Source: an uncultured virus (IMG/VR IMGVR_UViG_3300031565_000002) (lineage: Duplodnaviria > Heunggongvirae > Uroviricota > Caudoviricetes). From it: a stretch of 64,000 nt of DNA. The notes under the pieces are model-generated. The model ran no database searches, had not been told where the DNA came from, and worked only from the letters and a program-made list of their open reading frames with translations. Position 1 is the first letter of the stretch. Every line of letters begins with the position of its first letter. Shown here piece after piece: positions 194-61,246 of the stretch. Location of the stretch: the IMG/VR virus record IMGVR_UViG_3300031565_000002. One strand, written 5' to 3'. The translations under genes and the position numbers were made by a program.

Positions 194-280
194 TGGTACC
201 CAGAAGGAGACTTGAACTCCTATGACCTTACGGTCACATGGCCCTTAACCATGCGTGTCTACCAATTCCACCACCTGGGC
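194..280 (-). tRNA. tRNA-Leu(AAG)
   Basis: Leu-type body, stem CATGG/CCATG closing loop TTAAGGG, CCA encoded. Confidence 0.85.
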
Positions 281-601: not shown

Positions 602-1168
602 ATGAAAAAATATAAATTAAAATGTATTCATTGTAAAAAAATATTTATTGTACATAAACTAAGAGATTATCATAAAAGAAAGTTCTGTGGAAACTCATGT
701 TCAGCATCTTATAACAATCCTCGGAAACATCGAAAAGCAAAAAAAAGACCATGTTCAGTATGTGGGACTATGTTTATACCACCCAAAAATTATCTCCAAA
801 GAATGCGCTGCGATAAATGCTTCAAAGAAAATAAATTTACAAGAACATCAATAAAACCAAGATATAAAAATTATATAGCTCCTGATATATCAGAAATGAC
901 AAAGGGCAAATTGTTTAAATCAAGAAAATCTTGGCAATCAGCAAGAAGTGCAATAACTATACATGCCATCGTAACATATCATACGAGCAATCAACCTAAA
1001 AAATGTATTATATGCAACTATTCCAAACACATTCATATATGCCACAAAAAACCAGTTTCAAAATTCTCGAATAAAGTATTAATAAAAACCATTAATTCAA
1101 CAAAAAACTTAATTGCATTATACCCTAATCATCATTGGGAGTTTGACCAAAAACTTCTCCAATTATAA
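602..1168 (+). CDS. Zn-finger/HNH homing endonuclease-like protein
   Basis: CxxC pairs and C-terminal CIIC..HICHKKP..NSTKNLIALYPNHH motif; lies between tRNAs. Confidence 0.75.
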   Translation: MKKYKLKCIHCKKIFIVHKLRDYHKRKFCGNSCSASYNNPRKHRKAKKRPCSVCGTMFIPPKNYLQRMRCDKCFKENKFTRTSIKPRYKNYIAPDISEMTKGKLFKSRKSWQSARSAITIHAIVTYHTSNQPKKCIICNYSKHIHICHKKPVSKFSNKVLIKTINSTKNLIALYPNHHWEFDQKLLQL

Positions 1169-2542: not shown

Positions 2543-2715
2543 AATAATTTTTAAAAGAGACTCCATCAAGAGTTTCGCTTGAAATGTAGCCCGTGGACAT
2601 AGCCACGGTACGCAGCCGCACGTGAACCTACATCGGACTATATTGATCTGCAGACCTCAAGTCACCAGAGCCATGATAAGTACTATTAAAATATACGTAT
2701 CATCGACACGTATAG

Positions 2716-2738
2716 AAAAACGGGGCCGAAGCCCCGTG
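2716..2738 (-). terminator. intrinsic terminator
   Basis: ACGGGGC-TTCG-GCCCCGT followed by T run. Confidence 0.7.
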
Positions 2739-2827
2739 TTATTTCGATTTCAAACATGTGCTTGTTCATTCTTCTTCAAACCATCAATGTCAAAGAGCGT
2801 TTGCATAAAACATCTCATAATTTATAT

Positions 2828-3020
2828 AAAAAGTAGGCATCCGTTTTGAAAATGCAATGTTTTACCAATTTGACCATCTCCCCATAATTAGAGATACTAT
2901 TATATATCCCTAATGGAGGGGAGACGAGGAATCGAACCTCGAATGGGCTTGCGCCCACTTCATTTACGGTGAAGTGTCTTTACCATGTATGCATCAAAGG
3001 TCGAAGACGCTCTACTTTTT
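2828..3020 (-). ncRNA. scaffold repeat copy 1 carrying circularly permuted tRNA(GTA)
   Basis: tRNA 3' part 2984-2914 ending CCA precedes 30-nt hairpin linker and 5' part 2883-2860; flanked by conserved complementary arms. Confidence 0.8.
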
Positions 3021-3049
3021 ATTTCAAAGATCAAAATTTTATATAAAAA

Positions 3050-3191
3050 AGGTGGTCATCCATTTTGAAAATGCAAGTTTTTTGTATACTAATTGGGAAT
3101 TGAACCCAAGACAGATCGATTCATAGTCGATTGCTCTACCAACTGAGCTATAAGCATTATGTATGCATTAAAGGTCGAAGACGCTCCACCT
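3050..3191 (-). ncRNA. scaffold repeat copy 2 carrying non-permuted tRNA-like (ATG anticodon, no CCA)
   Basis: Same arms; insert 3157-3085 has D, anticodon and T arms and a weak acceptor stem. Confidence 0.75.
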
Positions 3192-3219
3192 CATTTATGT
3201 CAAAGAACAAAATTTATAA

Positions 3220-3398
3220 AAAAAGCAGGCATCCGTTTTGAAAATGCAATTTTTTTATTAAGCTTTTCCCCCATAATCAAGGGTACTATTAAGTACCATT
3301 GATGGTGGGGGAACAGGGAATTGAACCCCGAATCTTTTGGTTATGATCCAAATGCTTGACCTATGTATGCATTAAAGGTCGAAGACGCTCTGCTTTTT
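3220..3398 (-). ncRNA. scaffold repeat copy 3 carrying circularly permuted tRNA(CAT)
   Basis: 3' part 3361-3303 ending CCA, linker 3302-3273, 5' part GGGGGAAAAGCTTAAT 3272-3257. Confidence 0.8.
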
Positions 3399-3411
3399 AT
3401 TTCAAAGATCA

Positions 3412-3497
3412 TGGCGGAAGAGCGGGGGCTCGAACCCCGAAGTCCTTTCGGACGGTAGTTTTCAAGACTACTGGATTACCAATTATCCTACCCTTCC
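3412..3497 (-). tRNA. tRNA-Ser(TGA)
   Basis: Long variable arm, loop CTTGAAA, G73, CCA. Confidence 0.92.
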
Positions 3498-3731
3498 TTA
3501 TATTTTAACACCTCCATTTGTCGCAGTTCTTGCAATCCCTATTGCAAGGTTTTCTTTTGACAATGGCTTTGCCTTTATTCTTCTTTTTTTTCTTCCCCAT
3601 TCTATATTCTCAACTTTCACAGGTTGTCCACCATTACGTTTTCTAAATCCCTGTTTTCTTATTCTTTCCTGTTCATCTAAATGCCATTGTCTTTTACTAT
3701 TCATCTCATACATCGTTAATACTCCAATTTA

Positions 3732-3817
3732 TGGCGGAGAGTGGGAGGCTCGAACTCCCAAGTCCTTTCGGACGGCAGTTTAGCAAACTGCTGGGTTACC
3801 AATTATCCTAACTCTCC
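3732..3817 (-). tRNA. tRNA-Ser(GCT)
   Basis: Long variable arm, loop TTGCTAA, G73, CCA. Confidence 0.92.
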
Positions 3818-3825
3818 GATTAATT

Positions 3826-3901
3826 TGGTGCCACCTTCCAGAGTTGAACTGGAGACACCTGGATTTTCAGTCCAGTGCTCTACCGACTGAGCTAAAGTGG
3901 C
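3826..3901 (-). tRNA. tRNA-Phe(GAA)
   Basis: Cloverleaf, loop CTGAAAA, CCA. Confidence 0.92.
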
Positions 3902-4028
3902 ATAAATTTAATAAGGTATCTACACGTCCAGTCTAGCTGGCTTCCTGCTCCCTACGCACCCATACAATCAACTTGCATGTATGGCCACCCTCGATACCTT
4001 TAATCATTTTTTATTCCTTTGTTAACAT

Positions 4029-4062
4029 AAAAAAAGCCCTACTTCTTTCGAGGCAGGGCTTT
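4029..4062 (-). terminator. attenuator terminator 1
   Basis: AAAGCCCTGCCTC-GAAA-GAAGTAGGGCTTTTTTT; 5' arm also complementary to GGGCAGGG in the leader. Confidence 0.85.
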
Positions 4063-4092
4063 CAGGTCTTATTTATGTGTAGTATTCTCTAC

Positions 4093-4218
4093 TTATCCAC
4101 TTTGACCTTTCACCCTGCCCATCACGAGACTAAAATCTGAGCGCAATGATGTCCATAACATATCCGAATAATGGATATGCGTCAGACTACATATTGCTAG
4201 GGTTTTGAAAGGATTCAT
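4093..4218 (-). CDS. leader peptide 1 MNPFKTLAICSLTHIHYSDMLWTSLRSDFSLVMGRVKGQSG
   Basis: Hand translation; GGAG upstream; overlaps antiterminator; not in ORF track. Confidence 0.7.
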   Translation of the reverse strand: MNPFKTLAICSLTHIHYSDMLWTSLRSDFSLVMGRVKGQSG

Positions 4219-4264
4219 TTGAATTTAATACTCCGGCTAAAATTATTTTTATTAAAAGAGCTTG

Positions 4265-4384
4265 ATTCTATACGTTTTATCAATGCAAGATGAGGTGCTA
4301 GTTTGCACCCCGATATACTGAATCATTTTGCTGTGACACAAATTGTTTTATATATGTATGCATCAAAGGTCGAGTACAGAATTT
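4265..4384 (-). ncRNA. scaffold repeat copy 4 with non-tRNA hairpin payload
   Basis: TCGACCTTTGATGCATACATA ... TTGCATTGATAAAACG arms, outer stem ATTCT/AGAAT. Confidence 0.6.
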
Positions 4385-4443
4385 CGCCCTTGTATATTTA
4401 CACTTTATTATTCTCCAAAAAAATATCGGAGAAATTTAAAAAA

Positions 4444-4621
4444 AGGAAAAACTATCCGTTTTATAAGAGCAAGTTTTTGCTGAACTATGCCCCCGTATTG
4501 AGAGTACCTTACCGAATGATACCCCTAATGGCGGGGGCATGAGGATTCTCACCTCAGACTTCTTGTACCGAAAACAAGTGTTCTGTATGTATGCCCCAAA
4601 GGTCGAGGACAGCTTTTTCCT
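4444..4621 (-). ncRNA. scaffold repeat copy 5 carrying circularly permuted tRNA(TCG)
   Basis: 3' part 4585-4529 ending GCCA, hairpin linker, 5' part GGGGGCATAGTTCAGC 4494-4479. Confidence 0.75.
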
Positions 4622-4661
4622 ATATTTTCAATGAGCACAATAGATTTCTCTATCTGATACT

Positions 4662-4690
4662 AATATAACCCTAAATTTAAAAAATGTCAA
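4662..4690 (-). promoter_or_regulatory. sigma70-type promoter
   Basis: TTGACA-17 nt-TATATT. Confidence 0.8.
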
Positions 4691-4708
4691 CTCTTTTTTA
4701 TAAAATCT

Positions 4709-5011
4709 TTAATTTTTTTTAGATAATTCATCGGAACCGCTCTTCGCGTGATCCATTATATATGCCCCGATCCTACACTCATCTTCACTAAATTCAATCT
4801 GTGTATGGTGAAAACACGGTGTCGTATCATACCAATCTTTATCGTGAATAGCACAAGAATACTCCCCAGGCTTATCTCCAACTAAATGCTTACACTTATT
4901 ACCATCACCGGCATGAAACTTTAAATTACCCTCAACGAACCCTATATCAGGATCGTCAACAATCATTACGCTTAATGACTTACAACAGTATCCACACCGG
5001 AGACAAATCAT
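4709..5011 (-). CDS. YkgJ-like cysteine-cluster protein
   Basis: CLRCGYCC plus downstream C..L, CAIH, C motifs. Confidence 0.65.
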   Translation of the reverse strand: MICLRCGYCCKSLSVMIVDDPDIGFVEGNLKFHAGDGNKCKHLVGDKPGEYSCAIHDKDWYDTTPCFHHTQIEFSEDECRIGAYIMDHAKSGSDELSKKN

Positions 5012-5976: not shown

Positions 5977-6633
5977 CTAATGCTTATCCTCTGATTTAAC
6001 ATCTCGTTCTTTATGTATAATTTTTACAAATTCAAGCTGATTCAACAACATAACTTTAATATTTTCGTAAATAGATTCCTGTTCTGGAAAAAGTCTTTTC
6101 GCCTTTTTAATCATAGGTAAAATATGATTTTCAGTCTCAATTATATAAGCCAACTGATTATCAGCAGCAAACACATTTACCATAGTCTGAAAATTATTTA
6201 TTCTATCAACACCCTTACATACAGATACTATTGGATTTTTATACATAAACCTGAAATATTCAGTATTAGACACTTTTCTTCCATCAACATTCTTACTTAA
6301 ACTCATAGCAGCATCAGCCATTATATCCCCAAAAAGAGAAGTTAACTCATTACATGATACATCATAATCTTCTGGGGTATCATGTAAAAATATTGTCCCA
6401 TACGTTTCCTCTTTATGAATTAGCAATGGCTCAAAAACTCTAGCATAATGAGCCATAGATAATTGGTGATAAAATTCAGGGGTAAACCCATCTTTCCTTT
6501 TCCCCTTATGAATATTCGATGCATATTCCATAGCTTTAACAGCAGTAAGATATCCCCTGCCAACCAACCAATACCTTAATGATATTTTTGCTTTCTTAAA
6601 AATCTCTAACTTTGCCAACTCTTTTGCGTCCAT
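5977..6633 (-). CDS. HD-domain (p)ppGpp hydrolase-like (SpoT/Mesh1 family)
   Basis: A..YA..H.G.RKDG.P..H, LHDTPED, K..DRI.N motifs. Confidence 0.8.
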   Translation of the reverse strand: MDAKELAKLEIFKKAKISLRYWLVGRGYLTAVKAMEYASNIHKGKRKDGFTPEFYHQLSMAHYARVFEPLLIHKEETYGTIFLHDTPEDYDVSCNELTSLFGDIMADAAMSLSKNVDGRKVSNTEYFRFMYKNPIVSVCKGVDRINNFQTMVNVFAADNQLAYIIETENHILPMIKKAKRLFPEQESIYENIKVMLLNQLEFVKIIHKERDVKSEDKH

Positions 6634-9169: not shown

Positions 9170-9784
9170 CTATAGTAACTGGTTAAACAGGTTTTCATCC
9201 CCTTGACAAAAAACCTTCAATTGTCGTATCCATGCCTCATTCTTTATCTTAAACATTAACGGAGGATAACCATTTTTTAGCGGTGCTCCCTTACATACCA
9301 CTCCTTCAAATGTCATCCCCTGTAATTTTCCTCTCTTAACATTATCTTCTAAAATCTTATTGACATTTCCCCGATAAAGAAACTTCGCAATATTAAGATC
9401 ACCATATAATCTCAAAAAATTCCTCGGAAGTAAAATCCCCTTTTTATGAGGATTAACATCAATTAATGATAAAAAATGTTCTTCATCTGTATGTTGTCCG
9501 GCAAATGAATTTGGTCCCCAAAATTCAAAGAACCCAATTGCCTTCACGTATCTTTCTTTTCTAAATATATCAGACATCTGTTTTTCAAAATTGGATTTTA
9601 TCAACTCTATTGCTTCCGGAAGGAAGTCTTGGTCTGTACCTATGAGGCGTTTCTTGCTACCAAATTTATGAAATTTTTTCTTTGGAGTCCATTCCGCTCT
9701 AATATTAGACCCATCTAATTTATCAAAGACGTAAACAGGTCTGCCATAATAAATTTCTCTACCAATGGTGGGGTATTGTTTCAT
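9170..9784 (-). CDS. ATP-dependent RNA ligase-like protein
   Basis: KLDGSN motif I, FFEFWG, EGVVCK, FKIK nucleotidyltransferase motifs. Confidence 0.75.
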   Translation of the reverse strand: MKQYPTIGREIYYGRPVYVFDKLDGSNIRAEWTPKKKFHKFGSKKRLIGTDQDFLPEAIELIKSNFEKQMSDIFRKERYVKAIGFFEFWGPNSFAGQHTDEEHFLSLIDVNPHKKGILLPRNFLRLYGDLNIAKFLYRGNVNKILEDNVKRGKLQGMTFEGVVCKGAPLKNGYPPLMFKIKNEAWIRQLKVFCQGDENLFNQLL

Positions 9785-10414
9785 AACGATACTACGAAAT
9801 TAAAGTGCAAAATACTTCATTATTGCTAAACAAATAAAAAGAGCAATCCATCCGATCCACAACTGTAAACTACTAACAGGTCTATTCCATACACCAGGGC
9901 TATCCTTAAACCAACTACTCCAAAATTTCACTTTCTTCTTCATTCCTGCTCTCCTTACCATATTAATATAACAAGAATGAAAATGGAGCGAACAGGTTAT
10001 CACACAAGACCTCATTCTCTTGTACGGTGGAACCCGCTATAGATAATTACTGCTCACTCTCTTCTTTATTCTCATTGCTATATTAATATAACAAGAATGA
10101 GTACAAAAGTAAACTAATTGAATAAAAATTATCTAATACCTAAAAATTCAGCCATTCCTTTTATGAAATTTTTATCCTTACCAGTGTATATCATAACCCC
10201 TGCAAAATCCCTATCGTCCTGATATACCCCGTTACCTTCCATATCAACCTTTAGGAACTTTTTTCTAACTATAAAAACGGGATTATTCTTACATTTTACG
10301 TGGTAATGATCGAACTCTTCTTCATCCACATCGGCAAGTTCATGGAAAACCCATATTTTCTTCAGCCCATTTACACTTGCTTTCTTGTTTATTTTATGCT
10401 TCATAATAATATAA

Positions 10415-10488
10415 TGGGCGATACTGGAATTGAACCAGTGACCTCTTGCATGTCAAGCAAGCACTCTAACCATCTGAGCTAATCACCC
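10415..10488 (-). tRNA. tRNA-Val(GAC)
   Basis: Cloverleaf, loop TTGACAT. Confidence 0.92.
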
Positions 10489-10492
10489 TTTA

Positions 10493-10738
10493 TTAAAAAT
10501 TATCCATTATTTTCTCGATCTCATCTTGCTGATCCCAAACGAAATTAAGATCATCGAGATTCATCCCCTTTGCTTTCCCCATTTTTTCCTCTTCACCTTC
10601 CTTCTGATAATACTCTCTCTTTTCCAACTGAGGAGAACGTTTATTCCAGCTTACTATCTGCAGACGTAATTTATTCCCCCTCATTTCTGTTTCATTTAAT
10701 ACTTTAAGCACATCACATGTTATCTCTTTCTTTGGCAT
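10493..10738 (-). CDS. PC4/YdbC-like ssDNA-binding protein
   Basis: L.IVSWN.R.PQLEKR..Y ... GKAKG pattern. Confidence 0.6.
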   Translation of the reverse strand: MPKKEITCDVLKVLNETEMRGNKLRLQIVSWNKRSPQLEKREYYQKEGEEEKMGKAKGMNLDDLNFVWDQQDEIEKIMDNF

Positions 10739-17111: not shown

Positions 17112-17891
17112 CTACTTTCTATGGAGGGGGAGAGATGGGATTCGAACCCGCAATATACTCCAATATCCCCTACCTGGAGTCAATATACCAAAATAATTAC
17201 AACGCTTTTTAATAGCAGAACCAGAAACATTATATAATTCTGCTATCTTAACAACTGGTATCTCCCAAACCATTTTTGCTAATTCATCTCTATTAATATT
17301 AAATTTCATCTTTGATAATGGCAAATTACCACTTCCGCCAATACATGAAAGACATAAACCAGTTTTACCTTCACCATATAATACACAACCACAAGAAGTA
17401 CAATTATAAACCCTTATCTTAGATCTACCGCAAAATGTTTTTGTCTGACTATTACAATTAGGGCATAAAAGTCTTAAATTTTCTAATCTATTATCAGTAT
17501 TATCTCCATTTACATGATCGAGGACTAATACAAGTAGAAAATTATTCCATAAAGGTTTCATACTACATAAATAACAAATATTATTTAATAATCCACCCCT
17601 TATTAATCGCTTCTTCAAACGACCTCTATTCTGATATGTAGAATTCTTTACAAGAATATCTTTTAAAGGAATAGTTCGCGTTAAATGTAAATTTTTTCTT
17701 TGATTAATTATCCCATTCTTTATATGAGTATCATCTATACCTAACTCAACAATTCTTTTTTTTAAAGTTTTACAATTACCACCATGATTTTTCAAATCAA
17801 AAAAAGCAAGTATTTCACCATAACTATTAAACCCTTTAACTAATTCAATAAATTTATTTGATTCTAAACTCCATATAATACTCTTATTCAT
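17112..17891 (-). CDS. HNH homing endonuclease
   Basis: LDHVNGDNTDNRLENLRLLCPNCNSQT. Confidence 0.9.
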   Translation of the reverse strand: MNKSIIWSLESNKFIELVKGFNSYGEILAFFDLKNHGGNCKTLKKRIVELGIDDTHIKNGIINQRKNLHLTRTIPLKDILVKNSTYQNRGRLKKRLIRGGLLNNICYLCSMKPLWNNFLLVLVLDHVNGDNTDNRLENLRLLCPNCNSQTKTFCGRSKIRVYNCTSCGCVLYGEGKTGLCLSCIGGSGNLPLSKMKFNINRDELAKMVWEIPVVKIAELYNVSGSAIKKRCNYFGILTPGRGYWSILRVRIPSLPLHRK

Positions 17892-17984: not shown

Positions 17985-19125
17985 ATAAAACATAATTATG
18001 GTCTTCAGGAGAAGGCCTTGGAATATAATTGATATGTCTAAATGCGTCATAATGACTAGCCATAACTAACGACCCATGACCTTTCAAATTAAGAGCCACA
18101 ATCACGACATGTCTATGTGGCTCTTGTTTAATTATTTCATAAAACTCTTCAACAGCCCCACATGGAACTACACTTCCAGTAAAATCAGCATCTTTTATAT
18201 AAGTATGCGAATGAATCATAAAATTAATATTATAATAATAACGATACAACAATAACTGTATCGGAGTATCAACTGACGGTTTATTATCTCCTGTATATTT
18301 CACATTATATCCAAACGAAGTATCTCCTTTAAGGTCTACCGGAACAAACCCGTCAATTCCTATTTCTCTCTTGTCTATATTTCTCCTTGAAACAAAGATT
18401 TGTTTTTCCCCTCGAAACGATGGGAATCCATTCTCACAACGAAAAGAAACATTACCTAATAACCTTGTAGTATCTTTCGCATGTATACAGTCATGAAAAA
18501 CTTCTGCATACTTTCTAGTCAAATCAAAGAACTCCGGTGAAATAACCGGCTTAACTACTTCTGCTTTATACTGACAACTTCTAATCCTAGTGAATCTTCT
18601 CAATTCATTAACCCGACACATCAAGGCTGTTGCAATATTATCTATATTTGTAGATACACAAAAACAATTTCCTAATGGATCATTAACAGATGCCCTTATT
18701 CTACGTAAATCATTATTAGAATTGGCAAACTCCACAAACAAATTACTTTTAGTTTTAAGTGCACGGGAAACCAACTGCATAAATCCATACCTTGAATCAA
18801 GATTATTCTTTGATGTAACAAGGATACGAGTCGGAACTTCAGCCTTTAATCTATTTACCAATTTTTCTTTATCATTAGAAACATCCGGAAACCAAAATAT
18901 TACATCTGCCAATCTGCCAACTAAAGATTCCAATTCACTAAATGTCCCACCATTAAATAAAATTCCTTCGTGATTAATCGAATACATTACTTCAAAAAGT
19001 TTTCTAGCATAACCTGATGGTTTAGGGTCATCTCCCCATTTTCCGGCAACTACAGTATAACGAAACATTCTACCTCCTGGTTTAAGATACTTACTATAAT
19101 ATAACAAATATCTTAAAAAAGTCAT
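17983..19125 (-). CDS. class II aldolase/adducin-domain protein
   Basis: PSVDTP, HSH, NLKGHG; real start probably MFRY. Confidence 0.65.
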   Translation of the reverse strand: MTFLRYLLYYSKYLKPGGRMFRYTVVAGKWGDDPKPSGYARKLFEVMYSINHEGILFNGGTFSELESLVGRLADVIFWFPDVSNDKEKLVNRLKAEVPTRILVTSKNNLDSRYGFMQLVSRALKTKSNLFVEFANSNNDLRRIRASVNDPLGNCFCVSTNIDNIATALMCRVNELRRFTRIRSCQYKAEVVKPVISPEFFDLTRKYAEVFHDCIHAKDTTRLLGNVSFRCENGFPSFRGEKQIFVSRRNIDKREIGIDGFVPVDLKGDTSFGYNVKYTGDNKPSVDTPIQLLLYRYYYNINFMIHSHTYIKDADFTGSVVPCGAVEEFYEIIKQEPHRHVVIVALNLKGHGSLVMASHYDAFRHINYIPRPSPEDHNYVL

Positions 19126-19211
19126 GGGACCGGTTGGATTCGAACCAACGCGGGGCTTATTAACCCTTCGCCTTAAAAGGGCGATGCTCTCGGCCGCTGA
19201 GCGACGATCCC
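19125..19211 (-). tRNA. tRNA-Lys(TTT) with long variable arm
   Basis: Loop CTTTTAA; extra GGGTT-AATA-AGCCC arm. Confidence 0.8.
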
Positions 19212-22061: not shown

Positions 22062-22499
22062 CTAAACCAACCCATGTTCATCCCTTATCCCCTGTCTAAC
22101 TAACATTAAAATTATTCCTAAATTATTGCGCCCATTTTCAAGCTTCCCGCACACACCCCAAAAATTATCTCCATGAAAATTAATCTCAACTATTTCTTCA
22201 TTGCCAGTATGAAGCAACTTTCTTCTTAATTCTGGGATCCTGAACTTCAACATCACAATATCGGTCATGATACCAACTTTTATATCGTCCCAATTAGGAC
22301 GAAGAACCAATTCGTGACCTTTTCTTTTTGCTGCACTTGCACCCTTTGCATAAGAAATAGCAATTCTATTTTCTACGGATGTCGTCTTGGATGCTTGAAA
22401 TGCATGTTCAACTGTAGGGTATTGAATACCTTCATATTCAATTATAGAAGGAGAAAAATTAGACAAGAAATAATATTCCCCACGAAAAGTGCCTATCAT
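22062..22499 (-). CDS. NADAR (YbiA-like) family protein
   Basis: FLSNF, YPTVEHAFQASK, LRPNWD, D.FWG, G.N.LG..LM. Confidence 0.92.
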   Translation of the reverse strand: MIGTFRGEYYFLSNFSPSIIEYEGIQYPTVEHAFQASKTTSVENRIAISYAKGASAAKRKGHELVLRPNWDDIKVGIMTDIVMLKFRIPELRRKLLHTGNEEIVEINFHGDNFWGVCGKLENGRNNLGIILMLVRQGIRDEHGLV

Positions 22500-25186: not shown

Positions 25187-25260
25187 TGTCCCCATCAGGA
25201 TTCGAACCTGAAACACCTGGATTAGAAGTCCAGGATTCTATCCAATTGAATTATGGGGAC
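25187..25260 (-). tRNA. tRNA-Arg(TCT)
   Basis: Loop CTTCTAA. Confidence 0.88.
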
Positions 25261-25880
25261 GCATATCTTTTCGTCCTTGATGAATTTTTGTTTTTACTCT
25301 TATAGGTAGGTAATTGCATATCACAATTACCACAAACCACTCTGCAATTGCTGATTGCCCAGTTCGATGAATCTCCATCTATATGATCAAAGACCAATGG
25401 TACCGGTAACCATCTCCAAATTTTAATACCACAAATTTCGCATTGATGCCCCCTTAATTCTATAAGTAGTTTTTTGGCTCTACTACAATCAGAATTACCG
25501 TCTAAATTAGGAAATACACCAACATTAAGCACCAATTTTTTCCATTCACTCCGCCGATAATCATGTTGACATCTAATTTTACAAAACTTATTATTAAACG
25601 TTAAATTACCACAGAACAAGCATGAACGCCAGCGTTTTACATCTCTTATCCTATTTTTATTATTATAAGTAGATGAGCATGAAAGATCGCAAAATTTATT
25701 CATCCTTTTTTCATAAGGAAGAATAGCATTACAGTTAAGACATCTTTTCTTTAATTGGTGATATTTCTCTAATGCCTTTTTCTTTTGTCTTACTCGACAA
25801 TCATCCATAGCTTCTTTACTTTTTAAATAACCAATTCTACCGGCATCTACTCTACTAATTTTTCTCAATTTTACCGCCAT
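25251..25880 (-). CDS. HNH homing endonuclease
   Basis: DHIDGDSSNWAISNCRVVCGNCD; stop lies inside 5' end of tRNA-Arg. Confidence 0.85.
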   Translation of the reverse strand: MAVKLRKISRVDAGRIGYLKSKEAMDDCRVRQKKKALEKYHQLKKRCLNCNAILPYEKRMNKFCDLSCSSTYNNKNRIRDVKRWRSCLFCGNLTFNNKFCKIRCQHDYRRSEWKKLVLNVGVFPNLDGNSDCSRAKKLLIELRGHQCEICGIKIWRWLPVPLVFDHIDGDSSNWAISNCRVVCGNCDMQLPTYKSKNKNSSRTKRYASP

Positions 25881-29005: not shown

Positions 29006-29080
29006 TGGTACGCCCGAGAGGACTTGAACCCCCGACGCGCAGATCTAGAATCTACCGTTCTGCCACTGAACTACAGGCGC
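29006..29080 (-). tRNA. amber suppressor tRNA (CTA anticodon)
   Basis: Stem GTAGA/TCTGC closing loop TTCTAGA; complete cloverleaf with CCA. Confidence 0.85.
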
Positions 29081-33273: not shown

Positions 33274-33594
33274 TTATTTTTTTAGAACTCTCCAATCAAC
33301 CTTATCCTTTTTATTATTGTTACACCTAAAACAGGCAACCACCAAATTATCAGGATCATATCTATCTCCACCTTTACCTAATGGTACAACATGATCCACT
33401 GTCGCAAGCTCATCTTTATTCTCTGTCTCTGCCTTTAAATTAGTTTTCCCACAATAAAAACATTCCAGAACATCAAACTGACCTAAATACTCTGACCTAA
33501 AATTCACCCATTCTTCAACTTCAAGCCGATGATATACACTGGTCAAAAGAACTAATGCTGCTAATGACTTTTTATATACGGCTCCTCGGTACAA
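33274..33594 (-). CDS. HNH endonuclease
   Basis: CFYCG, TVDHVVPLGKGG, NLVVACFRCNNNK. Confidence 0.88.
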   Translation of the reverse strand: MYRGAVYKKSLAALVLLTSVYHRLEVEEWVNFRSEYLGQFDVLECFYCGKTNLKAETENKDELATVDHVVPLGKGGDRYDPDNLVVACFRCNNNKKDKVDWRVLKK

Positions 33595-39591: not shown

Positions 39592-40219
39592 CTTACCACC
39601 ATAGCTTTCGCTACCATTTCTGTTTGTGGTCTGGACTTTCCCTTGACCATATTTTCAAGAACTTAGGCCCCTCCCGTCAAGTCTCTACACCTTCCATTTT
39701 TCAGGATTGGCTCGGGATTGCCATCAGCATCACCTGTTAAAGTTTCCCCGAATTTGAGAGGTTCTACTTTCTACGTTTCCATAGAAGCACTCATATTTTA
39801 ACAACCCAATCAACAAGGAGGTTGTCTTTTGCCCATTTAACCTTACTCGACTGATTATTTAAAGGAAAATCTATACGAAGTACCATCGTTCCCTTTGGTG
39901 CTTCATTAATGTCTATAGTATAATATTCATCATTTTCATAACAATAAACGATAAAAACATCTATAAGACCATCGTAATATTTTTTATAACTTCCTTTCGT
40001 ATTAACCCTTGACGAGCATGTATTAAAGGCTACACAACCATTACCATCCAGCCTTCCTGTTTTACATTGAACTCTAAAAAACTTATGAGTTCCATCTACT
40101 AATAAATCATATGGCTGATTATCGCCAACAGGAACACTAACAACCTTACCAAGTTCCATTAGCCTAGTGATTATCTTCTGTTCGGTTAATTCTCCTTTTA
40201 CTTTTGGATTATTATTCAT
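39592..40219 (-). mobile_element. group I intron (IC3-like) with homing endonuclease ORF
   Basis: Core motifs AAATTCGGGGAAAC, AATCCCGAGCC, GTAGAGACTTGACGG, AAGGGAAAGTCC; U at 5' splice site, terminal G. Confidence 0.88.
39791..40219 (-). CDS. intron-encoded PD-(D/E)XK endonuclease (I-Ssp6803I-like)
   Basis: KGELTE, P.GDNQPYDL, RVQCKTG. Confidence 0.88.
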   Translation of the reverse strand: MNNNPKVKGELTEQKIITRLMELGKVVSVPVGDNQPYDLLVDGTHKFFRVQCKTGRLDGNGCVAFNTCSSRVNTKGSYKKYYDGLIDVFIVYCYENDEYYTIDINEAPKGTMVLRIDFPLNNQSSKVKWAKDNLLVDWVVKI

Positions 40220-59645: not shown

Positions 59646-60056
59646 CTAAAATTTGACGTATTTAGCATACCCCAATTCTACTAATTGATCGTTCAAATTA
59701 ATTTCAGGCTCTTCAACATTGTCATCATCCTTAAAATAAAAAATCTCAACTATAAACCTGCCATACTTACCGGTTCTATCCTTCTTAGTCTGAATAGAAA
59801 TGGTTTTGCCAGACAATATATCTGCAACAAACTGCTTAGCTTCCAATCCCTTTTCTTTGTCCTCTGGGGTTGTCCCTTTTACAAGACGAGTCTCATATGC
59901 ATCGATGCGTGCCAATCTCAATCTTTGAGTTATCTTAACTCCAAAACCTAAATCAACATCAACGTCAATAGTGTCTCCATCGACAACCCTCTTTACTACA
60001 GCATTATAATCATACATATACCATCTGCTACTTTCTAAGTGCTCATTACTGAACAT
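59646..60056 (-). CDS. thermonuclease (SNase-like)
   Basis: VVDGDTID, RLARIDAYE, GKYGR, N..LV..GYA; real start probably MYDY. Confidence 0.9.
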   Translation of the reverse strand: MFSNEHLESSRWYMYDYNAVVKRVVDGDTIDVDVDLGFGVKITQRLRLARIDAYETRLVKGTTPEDKEKGLEAKQFVADILSGKTISIQTKKDRTGKYGRFIVEIFYFKDDDNVEEPEINLNDQLVELGYAKYVKF

Positions 60057-61246
60057 TCTGAAATTCCTACTTCTTCCAAGGCAGTTTCGTTTGTCCCAAT
60101 TGAGGACGGATAAACCAGAGCTTCCTTGTCCATAGGCGTTAATTCGGGATTAACCATCCCTATTTTATTAAGACCATAGTTCTTTAAATTTATTGAAGCA
60201 TTCAGGTCACGGTCTATAACCTGGCCACAATTTTCACAAATAAATTCCCTTTCGGAAAGTAATAGCTCTGCCTTTACATAACCACAACCCGAACAAGTCT
60301 TAGAAGAAGGAAACCACCTATCCGCAACGATTAGTGTATTCCCATAAAGAACTGATTTATATTCAAGTTGTCTACGAAATTCACCAAAACCTAAATCAGA
60401 AATACTTAAAGCTAATTTATGATTCTTCAGCATTCCTGAGACATTCAGGTCCTCAATCACTATAATCTGATAATTATTACAAAGATAAGTAGTAAGTTTA
60501 TCGAGGATGTCTTTCCTTAGACAGGCAATTTCATAATGAACTTTAGCTACTTTTCGATTAGCCTTATGCCTGTTAGAAGATCCCTTAATTTTTCTCGATG
60601 CCCATCTCTGTAATAATTTAAGCTTACCTAAACGCCTGCGTAAAGGATTGACAGACACTATCACTTTCCTGTCACTTAAAGTAGCCAGTGTTTTAATTCC
60701 AAGATCAACACCTACAACTGCTTGGTTATCACAAATAGTAGAATTAATCTCAGTTTGAACACTAATCACTATGAACCAATAATCTGCTTTTCTTCTGACT
60801 ACAGCAGACATTATTTTCCCGGCAAATCTTAAGGGTTCTGCCCCTTTGACCCATCCGAGTTTAGGTATCCTGAATTTATTTTCTTCTACTGAAAATTTAT
60901 CATTTGAGATGTAAAAAGAGTCTCTTCTACCCTTTTTCTTAAATACAGGATATTTATTTTGATATTTAAAGAATCTTCCAAAAGCTGCCTGAAGATTAGT
61001 AAAAGGTTGTTGGTTAGCGTCTTTATTTGTCTCAGACATCCAAGGAAATTTAATTTTCTTTTCTTTATTAAATTGTTTTTTAATTTCTAAGATATTAGGT
61101 TTTAAACCTTCTTCTTTTAACCTTTGATACTCAGAGAGGCCATAGTTATAAGCAACTCGGGCACAGCCACACGCTTTCCTGAAGAAGGTTTCGTGCCCTT
61201 TAGTAGGGTAGAGACGAATAGTATGCACTAAATTTAAAATGCTCAT
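60035..61246 (-). mobile_element. tnpB: TnpB RNA-guided nuclease, IS200/IS605-family element without tnpA
   Basis: IRLYP HTH, GVDLGIK, IEDL, SSKTCSGCG, DRDLNASIN. Confidence 0.92.

Follow-up and report, generated by a model that had tools for sequence, protein, structure and literature searches.

A 64,000-nucleotide (nt) stretch of DNA from an uncultured virus (IMG/VR record IMGVR_UViG_3300031565_000002; Caudoviricetes), called the window throughout, carries five small RNA units in which a conserved paired stalk encloses a transfer RNA (tRNA) or another structured cargo. The window, at 36% G+C, covers a portion of a large phage genome in an environmental assembly. Soil metagenome runs contain it at 0.85-0.99 of sampled words, and sediment runs contain it in part. 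An original prediction, made from the letters alone, had described a five-copy RNA scaffold carrying circularly permuted tRNAs, and our analysis confirmed a five-unit RNA family with a conserved paired stalk. All five units, here c1 to c5, lie on the minus strand (Table 1). They do not form one array, however, since three normal tRNAs, an open reading frame (ORF) of 66 codons, and other intergenic RNA-like sequence separate c3 from c4. Contigs from other runs cover positions 2780-3883 with four differences, 4083-4680 with one, and 3104-3294 with none, so the units are not an assembly artifact, although some of those runs may share a sampling campaign with the source.

Table 1. Positions of the RNA units, their parts and two associated features in the window.
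Feature	Position	Strand	Remark
c1 unit	3018..2830	-	then T5
c1 5' arm	2985..3018	-	outer stem, bulged A, helix H1, loop TCGACCTTT, helix H2, TACAT
c1 tRNA-Tyr 3' part	2914..2984	-	D-loop 3' side, D stem 3' strand, anticodon arm (loop CCGTAAA), long variable arm, T arm, acceptor 3' strand, TCCA
c1 linker hairpin	2884..2913	-	30 nt, between CCA and G1
c1 tRNA-Tyr 5' part	2858..2883	-	acceptor 5' strand, D stem 5' strand, whole D loop; plus A-rich tail
c1 3' arm and outer stem	2830..2857	-	then T5
c2 unit	3049..3192	-	stalk around ordinary-order tRNA (3084-3157, anticodon ATG, no CCA), then T6
c3 unit	3222..3396	-	5' arm 3363-3396; tRNA(CAT) 3' part 3303-3362; linker 3273-3302; 5' part 3250-3272; 3' arm 3222-3249; then T7
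c4 unit	about 4262..4385	-	stalk around 65-nt two-hairpin payload at 4289-4353; 5' core intact, H1 compensatory changes, 3' arm diverged
c5 unit	4445..4620	-	5' arm 4587-4620; tRNA-Arg(TCG) 3' part 4529-4586; linker 4495-4528; 5' part 4473-4494; 3' arm 4445-4472; then T7
Promoter-like site, sigma-70 type	4662..4690	-	TTGACA-17-TATATT (11/12), ~40 nt upstream of c5
P0001, minimal ATP-dependent RNA-ligase-fold protein	9170..9784	-	204 amino acids (aa); 4.5 kb upstream of the units

The stalk was assessed on an alignment (A1) of six units, namely c1 to c5 and a homologue on another contig, L032, which is described below. Conserved 5' and 3' arms pair into an interrupted stalk, as had been proposed, with 93.9% of 114 alignment cells paired. 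Its 19 pairs are arranged as a unit-specific outer stem of 7 base pairs (bp) and two helices of 6 bp each, H1 and H2; a bulged base separates the outer stem from H1, and a 9-by-9 internal loop separates H1 from H2. The core of the 5' arm is an invariant TCGACCTTT followed by three bases and GCATACAT; it occurs five times in the window at three or fewer mismatches, where shuffled sequence leads one to expect 0.01. The 3' arm reads TTGC, a short variable piece, and AAAAYG, and three window copies of its consensus were found at three or fewer mismatches against an expectation of 0, the diverged 3' arms of c4 and c5 having been recognized by eye and by an arm hidden Markov model (HMM). The outer stem differs in every unit, and all of those quoted in the original prediction (GTAG/CTAC, GGTGG/CCACC, GCAG/CTGC, and GGAAAAA/TTTTTCC) are present. 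Because the outer stems are unit-specific, a 3' arm cannot pair with the 5' arm of the next unit, and this arrangement was ruled out on the resulting mismatches.

The original prediction had staked itself on covariation among homologues, and 12 of the 19 stalk pairs are indeed changed on both sides across the six units. For example, H1 of c4 differs from H1 of c5 by a double change from C-G to A-T. No shuffle out of 500 reached the observed stalk pairing and double changes, and sliding one partner by 1-3 columns lowered pairing to 34-48%; the structure was written from the same sequences on which it was tested, and the comparison favors it over its slid versions. While the helices co-vary, the loop sequences TCGACCTTT, TACAT, and AAAAC are invariant in all six units.

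One of these loops invites an explanation of its own. TACAT, extended to TACATA in four of the six units, sits in the loop adjoining the cargo, and this single-stranded junction could be a cut site for the Bacillota toxin MazF (NdoA), in which case the units would sense or soak up MazF activity, or release their cargo once MazF is active. The longer motif fits the strict U^ACAUA specificity that a preprint gives for MazF of Bacillus subtilis, Listeria, and Staphylococcus aureus, together with a known interplay between MazF and phages (10.64898/2026.08.06.743204). The helicase encoded in the window has its closest phage relatives in phages of Listeria and Bacillus, at only ~30% identity, and the promoter-like sites by the units are of sigma-70 type. 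However, a match of 5-6 nt to one among many nuclease motifs could easily arise by chance, and no matching site lies 3' of the cargo. Nor is the motif avoided by the phage: TACATA is not depleted on the coding strand (18 observed and 18.0 expected), and TACAT occurs 72 times where 59-64 are expected. We consider a role as a MazF target the slimmest of the explanations discussed here and highly improbable.

The tRNAs of c1, c3, and c5 are circularly permuted in the D loop. Each of the three reads in the predicted order, from a 3' part ending in NCCA through a hairpin linker to a 5' part, and the linkers measure 30 (c1), 30 (c3), and 34 (c5) nt, matching the 30-34 nt given beforehand. The first half holds the 3' side of the D loop, the 3' strand of the D stem, the anticodon arm, the variable region, the T arm, the 3' strand of the acceptor stem, the discriminator, and CCA. 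After the hairpin come the 5' strand of the acceptor stem, two bases, the 5' strand of the D stem, the 5' side of the D loop, and an A-rich tail. The variable region of c1 is long, as in class II tRNA-Tyr. In c1 and c3 the break point, by reading, falls just before G18-G19. All three encode NCCA on a 7-bp acceptor stem.

As encoded, c1, c3, and c5 receive no tRNA call from ARAGORN or Rfam, the partial Rfam tRNA matches on permuted units being sub-threshold at 27.6 and 25.2 bits. With the halves rejoined by script, ARAGORN calls tRNA-Tyr(gta), tRNA-Met(cat), and tRNA-Arg(tcg), in 3/3 units and over a range of trims. What marks a permuted tRNA, halves swapped on one strand and a rejoined cloverleaf accepted by a tRNA finder, is thus found in each of them, and a permuted-tRNA detector of our own recovered c1, c3, and c5. 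Folding points the same way. The single-sequence fold of c3 directly gives the stalk and a permuted cloverleaf, and RNAalifold on the three units returns the stalk, D stem, anticodon arm, T arm, 7-bp acceptor stem, and linker hairpin, with 24 compensatory pairs among 53.

The acceptor stems (GGGGAGA, GGGGGAA, and GGGGGCA) and the linkers of c1, c3, and c5 are visibly homologous, and the remaining tRNA bodies, at 0.59-0.62 identity, are no closer to one another than unrelated tRNAs are. In c1 and c3, G1 is preceded by ATTAT, which matches the spacers of other tRNAs of the phage, such as TAAATTAT before Val-tac and Pro-tgg. The TCG of c5 is the only U34 arginine anticodon of the CGN box in the window. 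In c1, GGTAAA stands on both sides of the break, in the 5' part and again at the start of the 3' part. This repeat would be the footprint expected from a tandem duplication followed by loss of the outer parts inside the arms.

The other two cargos also turned out much as foreseen. An unpermuted tRNA-like RNA had been claimed for c2, and its cargo matches RF00005 at 63.9 bits against a cut-off of 29, with the anticodon read by ARAGORN as atg. By reading, this tRNA and that of L032 differ by paired changes in the acceptor, anticodon, and T stems. The c2 ATG tRNA also has a G3-T70 pair, again by reading, and its anticodon and body break the usual identity rules. Both belong to a set of tRNAs with A34: 194-280 (-) with AAG and 3084-3157 (-) with ATG in the window, and 3926-4001 (-) with ACT on L032. 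The non-tRNA payload claimed for c4 proved to be 65 nt with two hairpins inside the stalk (z-score -4.2). MAFFT places these hairpins against the anticodon and T arms, and for this reason c4 may be a unit that lost its acceptor module. The 20-nt 5' core of c4 is intact despite its non-tRNA cargo. Across the tRNA cargos of the family, NCCA is encoded in 4/5, and there are five different anticodons.

Promoter-like and terminator-like sequences flank the units. A promoter-like site stands upstream of c5 (Table 1) and a similar one, TTGACT-17-TATATT, lies ~25 nt upstream of the L032 unit; both are consensus matches only. There is no room for a full promoter before c1-c3. The motif CTTTGAMAT lies just upstream of c3, c2, and c1 and once downstream of c1 (2787-2795, 3021-3029, 3197-3205, and 3399-3407, minus strand). 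It occurs seven times in the window, where 2.45 are expected, and 4/7 are in the unit cluster. A run of T5-T7 follows the outer stem in 5/6 units, with an A-run in front. As the stem is long-range, these ends are unlisted by a terminator scan limited to loops of 3-8 nt.

Natural variation at the locus is unevenly distributed. A marine-sediment contig over 4356-4612 has five differences in 257 nt, four of them in the 34-nt linker of c5 and one in the A-rich tail. The tRNA body, arms, and spacer of c5 have none, an outcome with a chance of ~0.001 by simple arithmetic if sites are uniform. One of the changed linker bases, the G at 4523, faces T in a single-sequence fold (by reading), and the variant would turn this G-T into A-T. 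The pattern suggests purifying selection on the body and arms of c5.

The sixth unit, L032, was found on a 73.7-kb metagenomic contig and is the one true homologue among six loci in JGI metagenome contigs. Its 5' arm is identical over 26 nt, and its 3' arm has a single change, which turns a G-T pair into G-C. The outer stem is different (GGGTTA/TAACCC), and the cargo is a diverged tRNA in normal order with anticodon ACT and an encoded CCA. Comparison by blastp of the 8 kb around L032 with the 64-kb window found no common proteins at E 1e-3, and no relatives were found for the protein neighboring L032. On the strength of these alignments, the stalk family reaches beyond one phage, its arms being conserved in a second, seemingly unrelated phage contig.

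Wider searches for the arms returned little else. In IMG/VR, a strict 5'-arm pattern had no match and a looser one matched 30 loci, all by chance in coding regions. A 14-base pattern gave at least 119 loci, none of those listed having a 3' arm in a plausible context; one that a regular expression had flagged, L113, was rejected as a 59% GC locus that reads as coding sequence. The 3'-arm pattern gave four chance matches, GTDB genome contigs gave three matches, all by chance, and blastn against INPHARED returned only ordinary tRNAs. When arm HMMs were run over the window and all collected loci, both arms were found only in the six known units. A whole-record pattern search of four related huge phages found nothing in three and one 3-mismatch match in the fourth (G002), which equals the reversed-pattern control. 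The permuted-tRNA detector, applied to L032 and L163-L167, gave two matches only, both in L163 and both without CCA.

These observations bear on whether the units are functional at all. They could be rearrangement debris, or a mobile cassette acting at the DNA level amid homing endonucleases, with permuted tRNAs that do not function. The tRNA region of the window is interspersed with at least five HNH-type ORFs and one PD-(D/E)XK_5 ORF, the permuted order and the 6-nt overlap in c1 point to duplication and deletion, c4 resembles a unit without its acceptor module, and canonical tRNA invariants are eroded. Debris would not, however, be expected to carry compensatory changes in the stalk, acceptor stems, and linker hairpins, to stay unchanged in tRNA body and arms in the sediment variant, or to keep its arms in a second, unrelated phage. 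The unit-specific outer stems are moreover inverted, which fits an RNA helix and not target-site duplications. We regard this explanation as very unlikely.

Among the closest known systems are the permuted tRNA genes of algae and archaea. Such genes have reportedly been found in Cyanidioschyzon merolae, green algae, a nucleomorph, and Thermofilum pendens, in work by Soma (2007), Maruyama (2010), and Chan (2011). D-loop break points are among those reported for them. As in the phage units, the 3' half lies upstream of the 5' half in one transcript, a spacer joins the acceptor ends, and leader and trailer pair. Their precursors differ from ours in having a bulge-helix-bulge motif, a splicing endonuclease, and a circular RNA intermediate. 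The phage units, in turn, belong to a bacterial virus and have a long, sequence-conserved stalk that is also used for normal-order and non-tRNA cargo. A single permuted tRNA is described in the prasinovirus BpV1, an algal virus (PMC3673656). Among the matches listed in the literature searched, there was no report of permuted tRNA genes in a bacteriophage, and we met the permuted arrangement only for archaea, algae, and an algal virus.

Bacteria themselves provide a precedent for a permuted tRNA-like domain in two-piece transfer-messenger RNA (tmRNA), whose circularly permuted genes were reportedly described by Keiler, Shapiro, and Williams in 2000. In this RNA, a spacer that links CCA to the 5' acceptor strand is cut out, and the resulting two pieces function unligated. 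The Rfam model RF04321 (tmRNA_permuted) scores 23.4 bits on c3 and 17.1 bits on c1, sub-threshold against a cut-off of 47, over the T arm, CCA, and spacer. In contrast to tmRNA, the phage cargos are full tRNAs with anticodon arms, and the units have no ARAGORN tmRNA call and no tag reading frame. Leader-trailer stalks of ribosomal RNA (rRNA) operons and the split tRNAs of Nanoarchaeum also use flank pairing to join the ends of a structured RNA and mark it for processing. The likeness lies in the long-range flank pairing, whereas the loops of the phage stalk are conserved between unrelated phages. Known self-cleaving ribozymes were considered as well and set aside for lack of an Rfam match.

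The likeness to the bacterial Y RNA YrlA is topological, real, and closest for Mycobacterium smegmatis YrlA (PMC4201824). In both, the 5' and 3' ends form a stem with a conserved motif, the T arm precedes the D arm, and the acceptor stem is closed (PMC4201824). In YrlA the anticodon arm is absent, with the stalk in its place and Ro60 adjoining, whereas the phage units keep the anticodon arm and their stalk leaves from the D loop. The same paper states that RNase P cuts the closed 7-bp acceptor stem of M. smegmatis YrlA, that CCA is gained, and that the two pieces stay on the protein Rsr. It gives the YrlA 5'-end motif as GNCGAAN0-1G, which is absent from the transcribed strand of our units, where TCTTCGACC or CCTCGACC is read. 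The complement fits the motif in c1-c3 and L032, but near the 3' end of the untranscribed strand. A strong match to a known family would have removed the novelty that the original prediction saw; with Rfam 15 the stalk finds no match, whether at gathering score or at E values up to 10, and YrlA and Y RNA models likewise have none at gathering score, nor at E up to 10 on 2600-4800. For Ro60 and RtcB, both raised in that prediction, a scan of 91 ORFs of the window brought up no TROVE or RtcB domain, and 14 ORFs of L032 likewise gave no TROVE match.

Our tentative interpretation, to which we assign a probability of roughly 0.4, is that the units are portable tRNA cassettes, in which the stalk would clamp the broken D loop and RNase P would open the spacer, so that a split or re-sealed tRNA results. 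It starts from observations, namely the anatomy of the units, the covariation, the recognition of the rejoined halves, the promoter-like and terminator-like flanks, and the presence of the stalk in a second phage. What we infer is the processing of the RNA at each step, its aminoacylation, and its use in translation. Leader and trailer would pair through the unit-specific outer stem, H1, the invariant internal loop, H2, and a second loop, and the stalk with its U-run would end the transcript and hold both ends of the cargo together. In c2 and L032, the stalk would extend from the acceptor end of a normal-order tRNA. In c1, c3, and c5, permuted in the variable part of the D loop before G18-G19, it would replace the missing D-loop link, and the conserved hairpin spacer would join CCA to G1. 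With the D-loop ends clamped, the cloverleaf could fold, RNase P could cut 5' of G1, and the spacer could be trimmed back to the encoded CCA. The product would be a two-piece tRNA held by the acceptor stem, D stem, and stalk, comparable to two-piece tmRNA and to YrlA of M. smegmatis. From there the stalk might be kept, be trimmed to leave a nicked tRNA, or be cut off with the D loop sealed by a phage RNA ligase.

We favor real tRNAs as the cargo because the anticodon arms are intact and carry different anticodons, because NCCA is encoded on 7-bp acceptor stems, because the leaders resemble those of the other tRNAs of the phage, because body and arms appear to be under purifying selection in the sediment variant, and because a good tRNA (c2, 63.9 bits) sits in the same stalk. 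The bacterial precedent for an RNase P cut and CCA gain in a closed acceptor stem (PMC4201824) also supports the cassettes.

The original prediction had offered two readings, a protein-tethered tRNA mimic or decoy and a maturation route by end-joining with later linker removal by RNase P. The latter draws support from one fact, a gene for a protein with an RNA-ligase fold, P0001, 4.5 kb upstream (Table 1). The protein matches phrog_548, "RNA ligase," at E 2e-11. It has more than 2000 homologues of ~200 aa, and many of the 120 listed carry PF09414; Pfam itself gives no match to P0001 at E 0.001. In its K-x-D-G motif, K22, D24, and G25 are invariant in 36 sequences. Among PDB entries, its structural model, with a predicted local distance difference test (pLDDT) score of 92, is best matched by T4 Rnl2, T4 Rnl1, and RNA ligases of archaea and Naegleria. 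P0001 is accordingly modeled with the nucleotidyltransferase fold and lysine motif of an ATP-dependent RNA ligase of the PF09414 type. This ligase also turns up within tRNA arrays in two other huge phages, L164 and L165 (near 10001-10612). The detector found no permuted tRNA in the 20-kb flanks of the ligase in these two phages, so the enzyme is not specific to permuted tRNAs, and a general function in tRNA repair is more likely for it than one as a dedicated maturase. The window further encodes two metallophosphoesterases and a P-loop kinase-like ORF. Nothing informative was found for P0002, the ORF after the ligase.

That the detector found no permuted tRNAs beside the L164 and L165 ligases is one of several points that weigh against functional cassettes. 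There is no bulge-helix-bulge motif: in the RNAalifold consensus, 10 and 14 columns from H2 to the D stem stay unpaired, with no 4-bp central helix, and reading of the units revealed none either; therefore, the algal and archaeal maturation route is unavailable as such. Each permuted tRNA departs from canonical invariants, mostly in the D-loop/T-loop network, which is unexpected if a canonical D loop is restored. By reading, G18-G19 are missing from c5, whose T loop is TGAGAAT; position 8 of c3 is A; and c1 combines C33 with a discriminator T where the normal tRNA-Tyr of the phage has A. The normal-order cargos have anticodons that misfit their bodies, with no long variable arm in the ACT cargo of L032 and no G-1/C73 in the ATG cargo of c2. 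On the ribosome, a long helix at the tRNA elbow would probably cause a clash. Finally, the stalk loops are invariant in 6/6 units, among them the tRNA-less c4 and others for which joining is unnecessary, and this points to a role of the stalk's own.

Such a role is the core of the alternative in which the stalk is the working part. It would be a handle for a conserved host or phage protein, as Y RNAs are with Ro60, and the cargos would act as mimics, baits, or tethers instead of decoding; their targets might be, for example, tRNA-binding enzymes or tRNA-targeting defense nucleases. The invariance of TCGACCTTT, TACAT, and AAAAC amid co-varying helices fits a protein-binding site, as do arms that are near-identical in two phage contigs without a detectable common protein, and a cargo that varies even to the non-tRNA c4, whose stalk keeps a compensatory change relative to c5. 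The topology parallels YrlA in that the paired ends form the stalk, the T arm precedes the D arm, the acceptor stem is closed, and a U tail is present, but YrlA and Y RNA models give no match up to E 10, the 91 ORFs show no TROVE domain, and GNCGAAN0-1G is absent from the transcribed strand. A handle would account for degraded tRNA invariants, which are exactly the D-loop/T-loop ones that a restored tRNA would need, yet a pure tether leaves the intact anticodon arms (five anticodons) and the NCCA in 4/5 tRNA cargos unexplained. In the normal-order units, moreover, RNase P would sever the cargo from the 5' arm. Candidate counter-defense genes, for an HD_4 hydrolase and a NADAR protein, lie nearby and would suit such a role. 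We judge a protein handle possible but on the unlikely side.

The cassette reading has a stronger form, in which functional tRNAs of a bacterial virus would arise from genes interrupted in the D loop, by means of a portable clamp, RNase P, and either the 204-aa ligase or no ligase. In this full form we consider it doubtful. If true, permuted or split tRNA genes would be seen in the bacterial world for the first time, and their maturation would depend on no bulge-helix-bulge motif and no splicing endonuclease.

The units lie in a tRNA-rich setting. ARAGORN finds 40 tRNA genes in the window, all on the minus strand between 64 and 39498; 39/40 reach the Rfam tRNA gathering score and 27/40 encode CCA. 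Long ORFs are almost all on the minus strand, as are the tRNAs. Alanine, proline, and glycine each have a triplet of G34, C34, and U34 tRNAs. Two neighboring tRNA-Lys(ttt) genes differ in length, one being unusually long at 87 nt by ARAGORN (19125-19211, minus) and the second having 74 nt. An amber-suppressor-type tRNA with anticodon CTA, labeled "Pyl" by ARAGORN, lies at 29006-29080 (minus), and L164 has one too. Recoding was considered and rejected, as reading TAG or TGA as sense gains little ORF cover (for TAG, 17785 vs 15738 codons in long frames). An intergenic stretch at 3902-3990 (minus), just upstream of tRNA-Phe, has a closed multi-hairpin fold (-29.5 kcal/mol, z-score -2.6) and no Rfam match.

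Protein genes of the window include a ribonucleotide reductase, a DinG-type helicase, a dUTPase, a deoxynucleoside monophosphate (dNMP) kinase, and DNA methylases, together with several HNH endonucleases, a PD-(D/E)XK_5 protein, an HD_4 hydrolase, a NADAR protein, and TnpB. The tRNA array looks heavily colonized by homing-endonuclease-like genes. HNH-type ORFs (five, or at least five by one count) dot the tRNA region at 602-1168 (plus) and at 1516-1989, 17112-17891, 25251-25880, and 33274-33594 (minus), and the PD-(D/E)XK_5 ORF at 39791-40219 (minus; E 2e-33) adjoins tRNA-Ile. We entertained the latter as an RNA-splicing enzyme and dropped the idea, its family being homing-endonuclease-like. 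The HD_4 protein (RelA/SpoT-hydrolase-type; 5977-6633, minus), 1.4 kb upstream of c5, and the NADAR protein (22062-22499, minus) are candidate counter-defense enzymes, and the former might act on alarmones or modified tRNA ends. The TnpB gene (60035-61246, minus), an OrfB_IS605 protein with a Cas12f-like TNB domain, lies between a nuclease and the DNA methylases.

Permuted and split tRNA genes have so far been treated as an archaeal and algal peculiarity linked to the splicing endonuclease. If phages have their own version, on a different stalk of conserved sequence, bacterial processing enzymes would be enough for such an architecture to emerge and be maintained. It would also show that some tRNAs encoded by large phages escape standard tRNA finders, as all three permuted tRNAs here escaped ARAGORN and Rfam. 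If the stalk is instead a protein handle, the units would be a new family of tRNA-mimic ribonucleoproteins in phages, relevant to the contest between phages and defense systems over tRNAs. Under either reading, the stalk is a compact natural scaffold that tolerates very different cargos.

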